Assembly: GCA_012719135.1 (NCBI GenBank)
Contig: JAAYAW010000085.1
Span: 2,067-66,066 of the forward strand
Length of the DNA: 64,000 nt
Origin: Chloroflexota bacterium
GTDB lineage: Bacteria; Chloroflexota; Anaerolineae; UBA1429
Reading direction: 5' to 3'
This document shows positions 40,458 to 46,552 of this stretch, in pieces. Under the pieces are notes generated by a model. It had not been told where the DNA came from, did not search any database, and worked only from the letters and a program-made list of their open reading frames with translations. How positions within the stretch are numbered: the first letter of the stretch is position 1; each line of letters starts with the position of its first letter. The position numbers were made by a program, and so were the translations under genes.

Positions 40458-40715
40458 TGCTCTCTCCTTTACCAACCAGACTATGTGAACCCCCCGATTT
40501 CGGACGGGAATATGTTAGCGCAACTGCGCCGCGGGAACAAGCAAGGGCGCCGAGCCAAGCGATTGACACAGGCCCCGCGCGATGATATAGTCGCGGGGCT
40601 TTACGGGCGGTGGTGGTCGCACGGACACCCCTTCCCGCCTCGTTCCAACCCCAACGTAGAACAGAAGAACGCGCGTCTTCCGGCCTGGCACGGGCCGGAT
40701 GTTGAGGAGTGGACC

Positions 40716-42986
40716 ATGCCCAAGACTGAGAATGGCCGGCAACAGGTGGTGGTGTTCGCCGGCACGCAAGGGCTCGCGATGCTGCTCTCCGCCTATCGAG
40801 ACGCCCCGTGGGATATCACCGGTGTGGTGCCGCCCGCCAATGCGGGAGCCGCCTTTGCCCAATTGCACTCGAGCCTGGGGGCCACCGCCGAGGAAGTCCT
40901 GATACCCACGCTGGACCGCGTGGAAGTGTGTGCTGAGCTGAGCGACGCCTCGCATCTCATCGGAGAGGCGGCCATAACGGCAGGCCGCGAGGGAGCCTCC
41001 ATCCGGCGTGTCTTTCTCGTCTCGGATTCGCCTGGCCGCCCGCAGACGGACTTTCGTCCTACACCAGAGCTCCTGGCGGCCCTCCGAACTGCAGACGCAA
41101 TCGTGATCGGTCCGGGCTCGCTCTTTACCAACCTGATCCCCTCTCTTCTGATCAGAGAGATCAACGACACCGTGCGGCAGAGCATGGCGCGCAAGATCTT
41201 TATCTGTAACCTGATGACTCAGCCGAACCAGACCGACGGGTACTCGGTGGCCGATCACGTCCGCACCATCCAGCAGCACTGTGGCCTTCGCTTTGACTAT
41301 GTTCTGGCGCACTCGGGCGGCATGATCAGCCCCGAGGTGTTGCAGCGTTACCGCGATAGCGCGGCGGATCTGGTTGTCGCGCAGTTGGTCGTAAACGATG
41401 GCTCCCAGGTAGCCATCTTTCCCGACTCGCCGCAGGAGATCGTCCTGGTAGAGGGCGCGATCCTGATGCAGCGCGATCTCGCGATGGAGGTGCTGCAGGA
41501 GGATCCTCTGACCGGCGAGCGCCATCTGGTCGTGCGCCATGATCCCAGCAAGCTCGGAGAGGCGCTGCGCTCTGTGTTGCACGACTATGCTCTGGAGAAA
41601 AAGCTCTCGGTAAGCCGCGCCATCTTCCGGGAGTACGATATCCGCGGCATCGTGGGCGCCGAGTTGACCACATCGGCCCTGGAGGCGATGGGTCGCGCTT
41701 TTGGCACCTATATCCTCCGCCGGACCGGCCGAGGCCAGATCGTGATCGGGCACGATGCGCGCCCCAGCTCGCTCCCCTTTAGCCAGGCGGCCGTCAGGGG
41801 ATTGCTCGAGAGTGGGTGTGAGGTTCTCGATATCGGGCAGGTGCCAACCCCGCTGACTTCTTTTGCCGTCAACCACTTTTGGGTGGACGGAGCCATCCAG
41901 GTGACGGCGAGCCACAACCCGGCCGAGTTCAACGGGCTCAAGCTGCAAGTCGGGATGGAGCCCCTCGCCGGCGCGGAACTTCAAAAGGTCGAGCGGCTCA
42001 TCGCCAGCGGCGCTTTTGCCTCCGGGCGGGGTCAGCGACTGGCCCGTGACGTGATCTACCCCTACCTCAACTGTCTGCTGCACAAGGTTGCCGTCTCGCG
42101 CCCTTTCAAGGTGGCGGTAGATGCTGGCCATGGCGTGAATGGCCCTCTGGCTTTGCGGCTCCTGCGGGAGCTGGGATGCCAGGTGGTCCCGCTCTACTGC
42201 GAGCCGGACGGCACCTTCCCCGCTCACGCGCCGGATCCGTCCGAAGAGGAGAACCTGGCTGATCTCGCTCAAGCTGTGCTGGAACACGGCTGTGACCTGG
42301 GTGTCGCCTTTGACGGAGATGGCGACCGTATCGGGATCGTGGACGAGAGGGGGCAAATCCTTCCTCCCGACGTGTTCCTGCTGCTGTTTGCCCGTGAGGC
42401 CCTGCGTGACGGGCCCGGTAAGGCCGTCTTTGAAGTGCGTTGCTCGGAGATGCTGTTCGACGGCGTGCAAAAGTACGGCGGCATGCCGATTATGTCACGT
42501 TGTGGCAATACCTCCATTCTGCCTCGGATGCTCCAGGAGCGCGCTCTGATCGGCGGCGAGCTGAGCGGGCACATCTTTTTCAACGATCCACCGATCGAGT
42601 TCGATGATGCGCTCTTTGCGGCGGCCAAGCTCCTGGAGTACATCGACCGGGCGGGGATGCCACTCAGCCAGATGGTCGATCACCTGCTGGACGGCCTGCC
42701 CCGGTACGTCAGCTCCCCCGAAATACGCATTGATTGCCCGGACTATCTCAAGGAAGAGGTTGTGGATGCCGTGCGAGATAGCTACAGTTCCCGATTCCGG
42801 GTGATCGATATCGATGGCGCACGGGTCTACTACGACGAGAAGGACTGGGCCCTGATCAGGGCATCCAACACGTCGCCCAAGCTCTCGCTGCGCTTTGAGG
42901 CGCTCGACGAGGTCCGGCTCGCCACGATGAAAGAGTCCATGCGGGAGGAGTTGCTCCGCTACCTGCCGGAGGTCCGCTCTTTCTAG
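40716..42986 (+). CDS. fusion protein: YvcK/GlmR (CofD/UPF0052)-like domain + alpha-D-phosphohexomutase (PMM/PGM-type, COG1109)
   Basis: Residues 1 to about 300: ADAIVIGPGSLFTNLIPSLLIREINDTVRQSMARKIFICNLMTQPNQTDGYSVADHVRTIQQHCG closely matches the YvcK C-terminal half, but the N-terminal DDGGSSG-type motif is replaced by PPANAGAAF. Residues about 310-756: FREYDIRG, active-site TASHNP, GDGDR. One uninterrupted reading frame. Start at ATG 40716 after GAGGAG; the track ORF begins 77 codons upstream. Confidence 0.8.
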   Translation: MPKTENGRQQVVVFAGTQGLAMLLSAYRDAPWDITGVVPPANAGAAFAQLHSSLGATAEEVLIPTLDRVEVCAELSDASHLIGEAAITAGREGASIRRVFLVSDSPGRPQTDFRPTPELLAALRTADAIVIGPGSLFTNLIPSLLIREINDTVRQSMARKIFICNLMTQPNQTDGYSVADHVRTIQQHCGLRFDYVLAHSGGMISPEVLQRYRDSAADLVVAQLVVNDGSQVAIFPDSPQEIVLVEGAILMQRDLAMEVLQEDPLTGERHLVVRHDPSKLGEALRSVLHDYALEKKLSVSRAIFREYDIRGIVGAELTTSALEAMGRAFGTYILRRTGRGQIVIGHDARPSSLPFSQAAVRGLLESGCEVLDIGQVPTPLTSFAVNHFWVDGAIQVTASHNPAEFNGLKLQVGMEPLAGAELQKVERLIASGAFASGRGQRLARDVIYPYLNCLLHKVAVSRPFKVAVDAGHGVNGPLALRLLRELGCQVVPLYCEPDGTFPAHAPDPSEEENLADLAQAVLEHGCDLGVAFDGDGDRIGIVDERGQILPPDVFLLLFAREALRDGPGKAVFEVRCSEMLFDGVQKYGGMPIMSRCGNTSILPRMLQERALIGGELSGHIFFNDPPIEFDDALFAAAKLLEYIDRAGMPLSQMVDHLLDGLPRYVSSPEIRIDCPDYLKEEVVDAVRDSYSSRFRVIDIDGARVYYDEKDWALIRASNTSPKLSLRFEALDEVRLATMKESMREELLRYLPEVRSF

Positions 42987-43056: not shown

Positions 43057-44901
43057 CTACTCCACGGTAACGCTCTTGGCCAGGTTGCGGGGCTGGTCCA
43101 CGTCGCAGCCGCGCAGGACGGCCATGTGATAGGCAAAGAGCTGCAGCGGGATGGATGCCAGAATGGCGGTCACATAGTCTCCCGCTCTGGGGATCCAGAT
43201 GACATCGTCGGCCTTTTCGGCCACTTCCATGTCACCATCGGACGCTATGGCGATCACCCGGCCACCCCGCGCCTTGACCTGTTCGACATTGCTCAGCATC
43301 TTGGAGCGCACGCGATCGTCCGGGCAGATGGCTACCACGGGCATGCTTTCGTCGATCAGGGCGATCGGGCCGTGCTTCATCTCGCCCGCCGGGTATCCTT
43401 CGGCGTGGATATACGAGATCTCTTTGAGCTTGAGCGCACCCTCAAGTGCGATGGGATAGTTCATCCCTCGCCCCAGGTACAAGAAGTCATCGCAGTTCAT
43501 GTACCGGCGAGCCATGCTCTCATAGTCGGCCGCGCGCCCGAGGAGTTCCCCCGCCAAGCTGGGCAGCCGGCTCGCTTCCGCCAGGAGGCTCGCACGGCGC
43601 TCACGGCTGAGCGTTCCGCGCTTGTTCCCCAGGTACACGGCGAGAAGCAGCCCGGCGGCGACCTGCGACGTGAAAGCCTTGGTTGAGGCTACCCCAATTT
43701 CTGGGCCCGCATTGATGGAGATCACGCCATCGGCTAGGCGGGCCGCTTGGCTTCCGGGGACGTTCACCAGCGCAATGGACTGCATCCCCCGTTCGCGGGC
43801 GGTCTCCATTGCGGCCAGCGTGTCCACCGTCTCCCCAGATTGTGTGATGACGAGCACCACCGATCCGGGTTCGAGCAGCGGGTCCCGGTACCGGAACTCG
43901 GAACCGTAATCCACCTCCACTGGGAGGCGCGCCAGGTCCTCGATCATGAACTTGGCCATCAGGCAGGCATGCCACGCCGTCCCGCAGGCCACCGCGTGCA
44001 GCCGGCGAAGGTGCGGGAGGATCGGTTCGACGCCGGCCAGATCATGCAGCACGACCTGGTCCTCGCTCAGATCCACTCGGCCTCGCAGCGCATCGGTCAG
44101 CGACTGAGGCTGATCGTAGATTTCCTTGAGCATAAAGTGACGGTACCCCTGCTTGGCCGCCATCACGGGGTCTCCGGTTAGTGTGGCCACCGGCCGCTCC
44201 AGAGGTGCGCCTGCTCGATCCATGATGCGCACGTCATCGCGGGTGACGGTCGCGACGTCGCCATCCTCCAGGAAGATGACGTGCCGCGTCTGCGGGAGCA
44301 GCGCAAGCGTGTCAGACGCGACGAAATTCTCTCCCTCTCCCAAACCGATCACCGTCGCCCCAGCGTGCCCCTTTCGGGCTGCTACCAGCAACTCCGGCTC
44401 CAGCTGGCTCATGACCACGATGGCGCTGGGACCCTCTAGTTCCGCTAGGGTCAGCCGGACGGCCTCGGCAAGCGGCTTTTGGCCGCCCCCGTAATGCCGG
44501 GATACGAGATGGGCGATTACCTCGGTGTCCGTCTGTGAGCGAAAGTCGACGCCCTCCGCTTCCAACGAAGACTTGAGCGCCCGGTAGTTCTCCACAATGC
44601 CGTTCTGGACGATGGCGATGTTGCCCTCTGCATCGATGTGAGGGTGGCAGTTGCTCTCCGTGACGGCGCCATGGGTCGCCCAGCGCGTATGTCCCAGCCC
44701 CAGCCCGCCGGATAGGTCGGCTTCTCCAACCCTGGCGGCAAGATCTCGGATGCGCCCGACGCTGCGGCATCGCTCGATGCCATGCTCACCGTATACGGCG
44801 ATGCCGGCAGAGTCGTATCCCCGGTATTCCAACCGCTCCAGACCCTCGAGTACGATGTCTGCGGCGCGACGTGTGCCCACATAACCAACAATACCGCACA
44901 T
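43057..44901 (-). CDS. glmS: glutamine--fructose-6-phosphate aminotransferase
   Basis: 614 aa; starts MCGIVGY (catalytic Cys2), two SIS domains, C-terminal ...VTVE. Confidence 0.97.
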   Translation of the reverse strand: MCGIVGYVGTRRAADIVLEGLERLEYRGYDSAGIAVYGEHGIERCRSVGRIRDLAARVGEADLSGGLGLGHTRWATHGAVTESNCHPHIDAEGNIAIVQNGIVENYRALKSSLEAEGVDFRSQTDTEVIAHLVSRHYGGGQKPLAEAVRLTLAELEGPSAIVVMSQLEPELLVAARKGHAGATVIGLGEGENFVASDTLALLPQTRHVIFLEDGDVATVTRDDVRIMDRAGAPLERPVATLTGDPVMAAKQGYRHFMLKEIYDQPQSLTDALRGRVDLSEDQVVLHDLAGVEPILPHLRRLHAVACGTAWHACLMAKFMIEDLARLPVEVDYGSEFRYRDPLLEPGSVVLVITQSGETVDTLAAMETARERGMQSIALVNVPGSQAARLADGVISINAGPEIGVASTKAFTSQVAAGLLLAVYLGNKRGTLSRERRASLLAEASRLPSLAGELLGRAADYESMARRYMNCDDFLYLGRGMNYPIALEGALKLKEISYIHAEGYPAGEMKHGPIALIDESMPVVAICPDDRVRSKMLSNVEQVKARGGRVIAIASDGDMEVAEKADDVIWIPRAGDYVTAILASIPLQLFAYHMAVLRGCDVDQPRNLAKSVTVE

Positions 44902-45014
44902 TGAACAACCTCCAATGGTGCGTGTAACAAGGACGGGCAGGCAGAGTACGCCAGCCTCGTGCAGTTCCGATCAGATGATGGGTGCCACCGGATCACCGAT
45001 TGGCTCGCCGGTCG

Positions 45015-45190
45015 CCCGGCGCCTTTGTGATGACCCTTGTTGTGGGAGGGTGTGTTCGGGGTGTGGCTCACCCCGGGGGCTTCCGCTGATCTCTCGATTT
45101 TCCCCGGCTCGTCGCCGGGTTAGGCCCGCTGCGGTGCGGGCAACCCCTTCCTCGTCAGCTGCCGTTCGGCAGCCCGTGCGCTAGAACCCT
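45015..45190 (-). ncRNA. glmS ribozyme: glmS ribozyme (GlcN6P-responsive self-cleaving riboswitch) in the glmS 5' leader
   Basis: Minus-strand leader: UAG|CGCACGGGCUGCCGAACGGCAGCUGACGAGGAAGGGG...AUCGAGAGAUCAGCGGAAGCCCCCGGGGUGAG...ACAAGGGUCAUCA. It aligns with the conserved glmS core (A|GCGCC..CGAAC..UGACGAGGA.GG ... CGGCGGAUGCCUCCCGGCUGAG ... CAAGGGGGUGA). Sits in the 325-nt gap between the DUF512 stop and the glmS ATG. Boundaries are approximate. Confidence 0.65.
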
Positions 45191-45226
45191 CCGCGCGCGT
45201 CGTTTCGCTAGGCTTGCCTCCCTTCT

Positions 45227-46552
45227 TCAGGCTCCCAGACTGTACAGCAGATCCACGATCTCGCCAAGGCTAGAGACCGCCTCCACCGGGACGCCCAGGC
45301 TCTCGGCAAGGGAACCGATGCTCATGTCATCGAGCGTGCGCTCTCCGGTCTCATCCAGCATCGCCTTCGGGAGGCACACCATGTCGCCGGCGGGTCTGGA
45401 GCGCAGTGCGGCGAGAACATCGGCGCCGGTGAGAAGGCCGGACACGGTTACGGTAGCGCCAAAGAAGCGGTTCTGCACGGGCAGCACCGTCAGCCGGGCG
45501 CCCGTGATCTCGCTCATCTCCCCTGCTAGCGATTGCAGAATCGGTGCGATGAGCTCGCCGCACACGAGCGTCACTCGGAGGCCCGCGAACAGGCCGGGCT
45601 TGATGTCGTTCTTTGTGTAGGCCCAATCATCCAGCAGGTCGCGCACAAGGCCGACGCCGTTCTCAGATTGGGCTCTGTCATCATAGTGCTCGGCGGGCGG
45701 TACATCCTGGCCGGCGAGCAGGTACATCTCATCGGAGGGGTATAGCCAAGTGCATCCTGTGCGCCCGTGGATCGTGCCGGCAAGCTCTCGCGCCAAATCC
45801 AGGACGGCGGCTGCCTCTGCCGGCTTCAGAGTCCTCTGGTCGTTACCGCGGTAGCGCGTGAGTCCCACCGGAACGATTGCGAGCGTTTGAACCGTGGGCC
45901 ACTGCTCCAGCAGTGCAAGAACGGTCTGTCGCAGGATCGGTCCGTCGTTCTGTTCCGGAAGGAGCACCACCTGGGTGTGGACGCGGATGTTCATGTGGCC
46001 AAGGCGTTCGATTTGTCTGACGATATCGCCGGCTCGCCCGTTGCCCAGCAGGGCTCGCCGCACGTGCAGATCCGTCGCGTGGACCGATACGTACAGCGGG
46101 CTCAGGTTCTGCTCGCCGATGCGCTGCCAGTCATCCTCCTGAAGGTTGGTCAGCGTCACAAAGCTGCCGTGCAAGAATGACAGTCTGTAATCATCATCGC
46201 GGACGTAGAGCGTCTTGCGCATGCCCCTGGGCATCTGCGCCACAAAGCAGAACGGGCAACGGTTTGAACACTGGCGCAGGCCGTCAAAGAGGGGCTCCGC
46301 AAAGACCAATCCGAGGGATTCGTCATACTCCCGCTCGACCTGGATACGATGCAGACGCCCGCCACGGAGTATCTGCAGCGTCAGCTCTTCTTCGGCGCCG
46401 TAGAACTGGTAGTCGATCATGTCGCGCAGCGGGTGTCCATTGATCGAGACCAGGAGATCGCCGGGCTCTGCGCCGATCTCGTCGCCGATGCTACCTGGTT
46501 CTACATGGGCGATGCGGCCACCGCGCGTCCTGCGAGCATTACGCCCCAGCAT
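45227..46552 (-). CDS. PDZ domain + DUF512 (radical-SAM-like Fe-S) protein
   Basis: 441 aa; N-terminal PDZ (GSIGDEIGAEPGDLLVSING) and a DUF512 core with the CSNRCPFCFV cysteine motif. Confidence 0.7.
   Translation of the reverse strand: MLGRNARRTRGGRIAHVEPGSIGDEIGAEPGDLLVSINGHPLRDMIDYQFYGAEEELTLQILRGGRLHRIQVEREYDESLGLVFAEPLFDGLRQCSNRCPFCFVAQMPRGMRKTLYVRDDDYRLSFLHGSFVTLTNLQEDDWQRIGEQNLSPLYVSVHATDLHVRRALLGNGRAGDIVRQIERLGHMNIRVHTQVVLLPEQNDGPILRQTVLALLEQWPTVQTLAIVPVGLTRYRGNDQRTLKPAEAAAVLDLARELAGTIHGRTGCTWLYPSDEMYLLAGQDVPPAEHYDDRAQSENGVGLVRDLLDDWAYTKNDIKPGLFAGLRVTLVCGELIAPILQSLAGEMSEITGARLTVLPVQNRFFGATVTVSGLLTGADVLAALRSRPAGDMVCLPKAMLDETGERTLDDMSIGSLAESLGVPVEAVSSLGEIVDLLYSLGA

Follow-up and report, generated by a model that had tools for sequence, protein, structure and literature searches.

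A probable glmS ribozyme with a two-hairpin insertion and an upstream helix in the glmS leader of an Anaerolineae genome

The glmS ribozyme class has been known since 2004 and is represented in Rfam by family RF00234. In Bacillus subtilis, RNase J1 degrades the 5'-OH cleavage product (PMC10810187), and glmS ribozymes have been described as being without an expression platform that sequesters the Shine-Dalgarno (SD) sequence (PMC2258182, PMC10810187). In a 2013 RegPrecise survey (PMC3766115, Additional File 4), genes under a glmS motif are recorded for five of five Chloroflexi genomes, and three for Deinococcus-Thermus; the survey covers cultured Chloroflexi, names Herpetosiphon aurantiacus and Roseiflexus castenholzii, and gives no structural description. 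For Escherichia coli, PMC4152352 describes GlmZ as a trans-acting small RNA that activates glmS translation by an anti-antisense mechanism. Here, we analysed the glmS leader in a stretch of 64,000 nucleotides (nt) from a Chloroflexota bacterium of the class Anaerolineae (assembly GCA_012719135.1, contig JAAYAW010000085.1), which we call the window. We conclude that positions 44984-45192 of its minus strand very probably encode a functional glmS ribozyme-riboswitch, belonging to an Anaerolineae subclass that carries an inserted module and an additional helix, P0. Homology, position, an intact core, helix covariation and purifying selection support this reading. A first-pass annotation had already proposed that a glmS ribozyme controls glmS in cis at this site; we agree, with cleavage dependent on glucosamine-6-phosphate (GlcN6P) being predicted from sequence. 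The motifs it listed all occur on the minus strand in the order it gave, whereas the novelty it implied for a non-Firmicute host is forestalled by the five Chloroflexi genomes of PMC3766115.

The leader is the 325-nt gap at 44902-45226 (minus strand), of the length first described, between a DUF512/TIGR03279 radical-SAM gene (45227-46552) and an open reading frame of 614 amino acids (aa) at 43057-44901 (minus strand). This reading frame encodes a true GlmS, as it contains a Pfam GATase domain and two SIS domains and reaches 780 bits against the NCBIfam equivalog TIGR01135, whose cutoff is 418. Direct reading of the sequence places the SD GGAGG at 44909-44913 and the glmS start codon at 44899-44901, 83 nt from the 3' end of the ribozyme, which lies on the same strand within the glmS 5' untranslated region. 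The whole ribozyme, from the 5' strand of P0 to the 3' strand of P3.1, spans 209 nt (44984-45192); it was mapped by hand, with the mapping checked by script, and it is matched by RF00234. In a permissive scan of the leader, this match covers 45023-45193 (minus strand) and the model end to end (positions 1-167), with 24.1 bits and E = 9.6e-4.

Orthologous leaders put this match into context. The closest named GlmS proteins come from Anaerolineae, Anaerolineales or Chloroflexi/Chloroflexota metagenome-assembled genomes, at 98% to about 60% identity. On the contigs obtained for nine GlmS relatives, the order rluB-cmk-DUF512-gap-glmS, with a gap of 300-430 nt, is kept down to 68% identity, and an RF00234 match precedes glmS in all nine related loci examined. 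Five of these relatives exceed the gathering score of 37 bits (53.8, 49.6, 46.1, 46.1 and 45.1 bits), three fall below it (31.8, 30.9 and 27.4 bits), and the 98% twin of the window scores 24.1 bits as well. Because all nine related gaps match RF00234 in a graded manner, from 53.8 down to 24.1 bits, the window is the low-scoring end of a continuous orthologous series. As the aligned 53.8-bit relative shows, P4 gains its score in RF00234 from AAA...GUGA...ACAaAG; the window keeps AAA and GUGA, and its third block reads CCAAUC. In both the window and this relative, RF00234 absorbs two large unmodelled insertions; for the window, it places 50 inserted nt behind the 5' strand of P2 and collapses the P4 domain for the most part. 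An Rfam scan of the whole 64-kb window at gathering scores found no family, and no tRNA either. An exact-sequence lookup with the GlmS of the window gave no match, and a GlmS scan of genome contigs yielded, among the matches listed (L001-L080), proteins of about 55% identity from unrelated phyla, which were unusable as comparison.

We drew the subclass from a metagenome scan with the clade-type 3' core ATCGANNGATCNGCGGANGCC, which gave at least 120 loci, with about 90 distinct ribozymes parsed. A scan of viral contigs with the canonical core pattern, which has no insertion, recovered no ribozymes; its 53 matches fell by chance in coding DNA. Core column and pairing counts given below are based on a 31-sequence alignment, RNA positions are numbered from G1 = 45181, all features of the ribozyme lie on the minus strand, and the equivalent residues of B. 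subtilis are taken from PMC11602151 and PMC7125110.

The window matches all 32 invariant columns of the alignment. The sequence UA|GCGC at 45178-45183 aligns to AGCGC of RF00234 and contains the predicted cleavage site A(-1)|G1 (45181-45182), where A, G, C and G are invariant in 31 of 31 sequences. The adjoining C2 G3 C4 (45178-45180) forms the P2.2 5' strand and pairs with G96 C97 G98 (45084-45086); the pairs C2-G98, G3-C97 and C4-G96 are kept as C-G, G-C and C/U-G in every aligned member. P1 follows as a hairpin of 7 base pairs (bp), GGCUGCC-GAAC-GGCAGCU (G8-U25, 45157-45174), in which five of six basal pairs show changes on both sides and 94.6% of cells are paired. It contains C10-G23, the counterpart of the L4 receptor (B. 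subtilis G33), a role reported for this G-C pair in PMC11602151. The sequence GACGAGGAAGG (45146-45156) then includes the catalytic core strand GACGAGGAA (45148-45156), which reads G26ACGAGGAA34 and corresponds to B. subtilis G36-U44; its GACGAGG lies at 45150-45156, and ACGAGG is invariant (31/31). Within this strand, C28 G29 A30 (45152-45154) is the P2.1 5' strand and pairs with UCG at 45095-45097 through C28-G87, G29-C86 and A30-U85, again in all 31 sequences. The P2.1 residues align with A37, C38-G55 and G39-C54 of B. subtilis, and the residues of a putative A.(C-G) triple are present. P2 pairs GGGG (G35-38, 45144-45147) with CCCC (C103-106, 45076-45079); across the alignment it is 98.7% paired, and three of its five pairs show exchanges between GC and AU on both sides.

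The 3' core strand is equally well preserved. AUCGAGAGAUCAGCGGAAG (45080-45098) is as long as B. subtilis A52-G70 and corresponds to it residue by residue, carrying the P2.1 3' strand (45095-45097), the P2.2 3' strand (45084-45086) and the counterparts of G67 and A68 (45082-45083). Extended to A84-C104, the segment equals B. subtilis A52-C72 in length and is identical at 16 of 21 positions, including C54, G55, A56, U61, G66, G67 and A68. It overlaps CAGCGGAAGCCCCCGGGGUGAG (45067-45088), and the GCGGA(A/U)GCC strand, GCGGAAGCC at 45078-45086, has invariant G, C, G, G, A, G, C and C columns (31/31). Counterparts of the following functionally critical B. subtilis residues are present: A37, C38, G39, A40, C54, G55, A56, U61, G66, G67, A68, G33, A128 (in L4) and A114-116. 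Over the whole alignment, 93.5% of cells are paired, compared with 72.9% after shuffling and 36-45% when the partner strand is slid. Moreover, nearest-neighbour folding recovers P1, P2, both hairpins of the insertion, P3 and P4.1 unaided.

The peripheral helices downstream of the core are also recognizable. P3 (45058-45074) pairs G108-111 with C121-124 (GGGG/CCCC; 90.6% paired among eight close relatives), and its 9-nt loop holds the 5' strand of P3.1, GCCAC at 45063-45067, whose partner GUGGC lies at 44984-44988 (G115-C119 with G194-C198). A comparison of cognate with non-cognate duplexes supports P3.1 (z = -5.0, 0 of 5,000 permutations), as do the compensatory variants ACCAC/GUGGU (L089), GGCAC/GUGCC (L128) and GCUAC/GUAGC (L158). 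J3/4 is ACAAGG (45035-45040), reads ACAAGG or UAAAGG in close relatives, and aligns to 'uuAg' of RF00234. The P4/P4.1 domain (44990-45035) comprises the P4 strands, an internal loop, the 6-bp helix P4.1 (CGCCGG/CCGGCG, C161-G166 with C171-G176; 87.2% paired) and the GNRA loop L4, GCGA at 45012-45015, which is predicted to dock on the P1 receptor. The 5' side of the internal loop, AAAGG, retains AAA156-158 (45024-45026). A P4.1 hairpin capped by GNRA occurs in 63 relatives, a count set by construction because the search required a GNRA loop. A P4 register with a UC bulge in the window is not common to the relatives (57% paired), and the homologous register, GUCAU/GUGAU, is weaker; either may form.

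The first of the two additions is a 43-nt module between P2 and P2.1 (45099-45141), which consists of hairpin A (45124-45141), a CUAA linker, hairpin B (45103-45119) and GAAA. Relatives follow the same plan, with a hairpin A of about 7 bp that usually has a GCRR loop, a YUAAC linker, hairpin B and GAAA. Both hairpins covary, each with changes on both sides in six of six pairs, and they are 97.8% (A) and 90.8% (B) paired in the 31-sequence alignment. The spacing from GACGAGG to AUCGA is at least 33 nt in 92 of 92 parsed relatives, mostly 54-66 nt. By our reconstruction from the numbering in PMC11602151, it is 16 nt in B. subtilis. The search pattern may itself select the subclass, so the insert cannot be claimed for every Chloroflexota copy.

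The second addition is P0. Its 5' strand is GGAGGGU (45186-45192, RNA positions -11 to -5), on the 5' side of the cleavage site; its partner ACCCUCC (45045-45051) belongs to additional sequence found between P3 and J3/4 and is also complementary to the SD. Throughout the subclass, a 6-9-nt strand that ends 2-5 nt upstream of the scissile bond (2-3 nt in most members) is complementary to a segment just 3' of P3. The two strands covary: besides GGAGGGU/ACCCUCC of the window, we found GCAGGUG/CACCUGC, GCGAAGG/CCUUCGC, UUGGGAU/AUCCCAA, UGGAAAA/UUUUCCA and GAAGGAAG/CUUCCUUC. Measured without an alignment, as the energy of cognate versus permuted duplexes, covariation amounts to -11.2 versus -9.0 ± 0.22 kcal/mol (n = 87 relatives, z = -10.1, 0 of 10,000), and z is -8.3 in 50 sequences outside the dominant GGGAAAG family. 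P0 crosses P3.1 and would add one more pseudoknot to the fold. It lies outside the curated model: in the RF00234 consensus, the 5' flank stays single-stranded and P3 is separated from P4 by only about 4 nt, so that the segment after P3 is forced into a loop insertion. We take canonical members to be without P0, going by the Rfam consensus and the B. subtilis sequence. Taken together, the insert and P0 are two conserved additions beyond the Rfam consensus that define a structural subclass across Anaerolineae, as judged from the sequences compared.

In many members, positions +5 to +7 (columns 22-24 of alignment A2) read AUG, about 10 nt after the SD-like 5' strand of P0, and thus resemble a translation start, for instance of a small open reading frame, that straddles the cleavage site. 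The resemblance may be coincidental, since the window has ACG (45175-45177) and L084 has AAG.

With the structure in place, several details of the first-pass annotation can be adjusted. Its cleavage coordinate, 45181/45182, stands, whereas its string UAG|CGC does not, as homology gives UA|GCGC with the cut between A(45182) and G(45181). The extent of 45015-45190 was too short, for P4/P4.1 and the P3.1 3' strand continue 31 nt further 3', to 44984, and the P0 5' strand begins at 45192. The segment ACAAGGGUCA (45031-45040), taken for pseudoknot-like, is J3/4 and the beginning of P4; the real pseudoknots are P2.1, P2.2 and P3.1, and P2.1, named there as a point on which the proposal could fail, can form. 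Insertions had been recognized correctly but regarded as GC-rich and lineage-specific, whereas the two-hairpin module is conserved in every subclass member, AT-rich ones included.

Some members are compact. L099 (6884-7042), L103 (2230-2420), L116, L129, L132, L142 and L177 appear to be without P3.1 and P4 while keeping P0 and the insert. They sit in low-GC Anaerolineaceae, and the GlmS encoded with one of them has its named close relatives in this family. The seven compact variants score 28-42 bits against RF00234, two above 37 bits and five below.

For this RNA, we infer that it depends on the ligand, that it cleaves, how cleavage leads to repression, and what P0 and the insert do. It would fold into a double-pseudoknot core (P1, P2, P2.1 and P2.2), braced by P3/P3.1 and the GNRA-capped P4/P4.1. 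GlcN6P, the product of GlmS, would bind as a cofactor when abundant, whereupon the RNA would cleave itself between A45182 and G45181 and glmS expression would fall. P0 would clamp the sequence preceding the cleavage site onto the body of the ribozyme.

Several observations weigh against a functional ribozyme with these additions. The window score of 24.1 bits lies below the gathering score and is, together with that of the 98% twin, the lowest among the relatives examined. P2 has only four Watson-Crick pairs and an A.C in the window, and a fourth P2.2 pair is replaced by A.A (A5/A95), where 18 of 31 members have no pair. On its 3' side, the P4 internal loop reads AGCCAAUCG rather than the conserved purine stack ACAaAG, leaving two of the three adenines that correspond to A139-141 (CCAAUC). 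No sigma-70-like promoter was found in 44850-45650, including the stretch from the upstream gene to the ribozyme; therefore, glmS may share a transcript with rluB-cmk-DUF512. For P0, a control with one strand reversed still gives z = -5.9 and is not a clean null, so part of the signal comes from matched purine/pyrimidine tracts, which stay partly complementary when reversed; and the permutation tests for P0, P3.1 and the SD ignore phylogeny. The score had been singled out by the first-pass annotation, which proposed an RF00234 search as the check and a sub-threshold value as grounds for rejection. The search does find the match, and we overrule its low score because orthologous leaders reach 45-54 bits and the deficit can be traced to the two unmodelled insertions and the divergent P4 internal loop; the gathering score is a convention of the database rather than a property of the biology.

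That a GC-rich intergenic region resembles the family by chance, for which the sub-threshold score alone would speak, is exceedingly improbable: the match spans the full model and lies before glmS in the expected place and orientation, about 90 relatives conserve it with covariation, and orthologues exceed the threshold. It is also very unlikely that the ribozyme of the window has lost catalysis and is decaying as a relic. The lowest Rfam score, the divergent 3' strand of the internal loop, the weaker P2 and the A.A mismatch in P2.2 would fit decay, but the core invariants are all intact, the A5/A95 arrangement is that of 18 of 31 members, and scores below threshold are typical of the subclass, as in five of the seven compact variants. 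The internal-loop strand GACAAUCGG of L104 is only one base from the AGCCAAUCG of the window, and AAA occurs on this side in just 38 of 63 subclass members. Substitutions avoid the ribozyme, which argues against a relic. Compared with the 98% twin, 1 of 209 ribozyme positions has changed (0.5%), versus 7.3% of the downstream spacer and 4.7% of the first 300 nt of glmS. Compared with an 84% relative, the ribozyme differs at 19.6% of positions with no change in the core strands, the spacer at 57%, the 5' intergenic region at 65% and the coding sequence at 27%.

P0 and the insert may be purely architectural, stabilising a marginally stable core or guiding its folding by tethering the 5' flank and bracing P2/P2.1, and partly substituting for P4, with no separate regulatory role; we give this slightly less than an even chance. 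In most members, 2-3 nt separate P0 from the scissile bond; P0 persists in compact variants without P3.1 and P4, several of which are without CCUCC (L103, L177, L101, L113, L136 and L145). In described ribozymes the peripheral domain stabilises the core, and a 66-nt core is active by itself (PMC11602151, PMC7125110). However, an architectural role leaves unexplained the conserved UCC beyond the helix and the covariation of the SD flank. The strand after P3 usually ends in ...CUUUCCCUCC, and P0 does not account for its UCC, which extends past the helix. These features suggest a second possibility, which we regard as rather doubtful: P0 and CCCUCC might form an expression platform, so that scission itself works a translational switch without RNase J-type decay. 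Before cleavage, GGAGGGU would mask the anti-SD-like CCCUCC and leave the glmS ribosome-binding site free. Cleavage would turn the cis helix into a trans helix; once the 5' fragment is displaced or degraded, CCCUCC would pair with the SD and shut translation. SD regions are indeed complementary to the post-P3 segment of their own leader to a greater degree than to those of other leaders (z = -4.3, 0 of 5,000; z = +0.3 in the same-sense control), the 3' neighbour of CCUCC can pair with the 5' neighbour of GGAGG in 64% of sequences versus 40% after shuffling (0 of 5,000), and the SD helix is extended by a mean of 1.43 versus 0.82 bp (z = 4.1). In L137 and L204, where the SD is GGAGAA, the element is CUUUCUCC. 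In partition-function folding of 74 leaders, the expected SD-to-post-P3 pairing grows after cleavage from 2.41 to 2.95 bp (Wilcoxon p = 3e-6); 24 leaders gain more than 1 bp, and four lose pairing. Yet any CCUCC is trivially complementary to any SD, the SD shuffles ignore shared ancestry, the compact AT-rich members without CCUCC do not fit, and an 8-bp trans helix need not come apart fast. Predicted SD accessibility is nearly constant across the family (0.213 versus 0.205). In the window, the SD forms only 5 bp with CCUCC (-10.7 versus -14.0 kcal/mol for P0), minimum-free-energy folds keep it in a hairpin loop before and after cleavage alike, and they pair CCUCCC (45044-45049) with a distal GGGAGG (45217-45222) instead of the cleavage-proximal GGAGGG. 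Family-wide complementarity and flank covariation are thus significant but modest, and they suggest a switch least in the window itself. An architectural clamp and a switch arm do not exclude each other.

Some observations on the surroundings may be added. The distal GGGAGG at 45217-45222 (minus strand) lies directly after the stop codon of the upstream gene and is not conserved in relatives. The glmS start codon lies in a small predicted hairpin (CAUUG...CAAUG, 44899-44919, minus strand) with the SD in its loop, in the uncleaved as in the cleaved leader. Convergent with glmS is a fusion gene at 40485-42986 (plus strand), called as a 756-aa gene at the same position in relatives. It begins with a partial CofD-family domain that is most similar to the UDP-GlcNAc-binding YvcK (130 bits against TIGR01826, short of its cutoff of 196), and the C-terminal portion, a phosphohexomutase with four domains, is nearest to PgmG and archaeal-type GlmM (354 bits against TIGR03990, short of its cutoff of 439). 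YvcK/GlmR stimulates GlmS in B. subtilis, and a GlmR-like/GlmM-like fusion beside a riboswitch-controlled glmS would make a tidy functional cluster. On L087, gene calling placed an 88-aa gene without a Pfam hit (2054-2320) over the 5' portion of a glmS ribozyme that scores 46 bits (2118-2382), probably a false call caused by the unannotated RNA. In two unrelated Anaerolineae-type contigs, a glycine riboswitch aptamer (RF00504) lies shortly upstream of the glmS ribozyme but on the other strand, at L142:3684-3778 (58.6 bits) and L116:689-781 (39.9 bits).

As such, a glmS ribozyme is ordinary; P0, the two-hairpin insert and the optional loss of P4 make up an undescribed variant as far as Rfam and the literature searched show. 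No earlier description of P0 or the insert turned up in these searches, whose scope did not extend to the McCown 2011 survey, so a prior description is possible. Much of the Anaerolineae subclass falls under the Rfam gathering score and is missed by standard annotation, as seen in the window, in five of seven compact variants and in an 88-aa gene call that overlaps the ribozyme of at least one relative; a model specific to the subclass would recover them. P0 and a structured insert in the pseudoknot linker amount to natural experiments on how a periphery supports a marginally stable double-pseudoknot core, including in members without P4. The anti-SD-like partner of P0 offers a testable alternative to RNase J1-dependent decay outside Firmicutes. 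If the switch proved true, it would be the first case of a translational switch worked by the scission of a ribozyme-riboswitch, and P0 would also replace the peripheral domain in compact members without P4.

Among known systems, the closest are the canonical RF00234 members of B. subtilis, B. anthracis and Thermoanaerobacter tengcongensis, which share with the window the site in the glmS 5' untranslated region, A|GCGC, P1, GACGAGG, P2/P2.1/P2.2, P3/P3.1, P4/P4.1 with a GNRA L4 and, in part, the A-rich internal loop. The window differs in the 43-nt module between the P2 5' and P2.1 3' strands, where canonical members have about 3 nt, in about 22 extra nt between P3 and J3/4, whose core pairs with -11 to -5 as P0, and in a divergent 3' side of the P4 internal loop, with a score under the gathering threshold. 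The Chloroflexi and Deinococcus-Thermus copies of the survey are likewise RF00234 motifs regulating glmS in non-Firmicute, often high-GC phyla. GlmZ concerns the same gene and metabolite logic, and if the switch held, a purine-rich strand, here in cis, would likewise occupy an inhibitor of the ribosome-binding site; GlmZ, however, acts as a small RNA in trans under the control of RapZ and RNase E, with no ribozyme and no sequence homology, so the analogy is functional and hypothetical. Finally, SD-sequestering expression platforms also use a pyrimidine-rich anti-SD segment with two mutually exclusive partners, but they switch by ligand-induced refolding, whereas the trigger proposed here would be irreversible strand scission.

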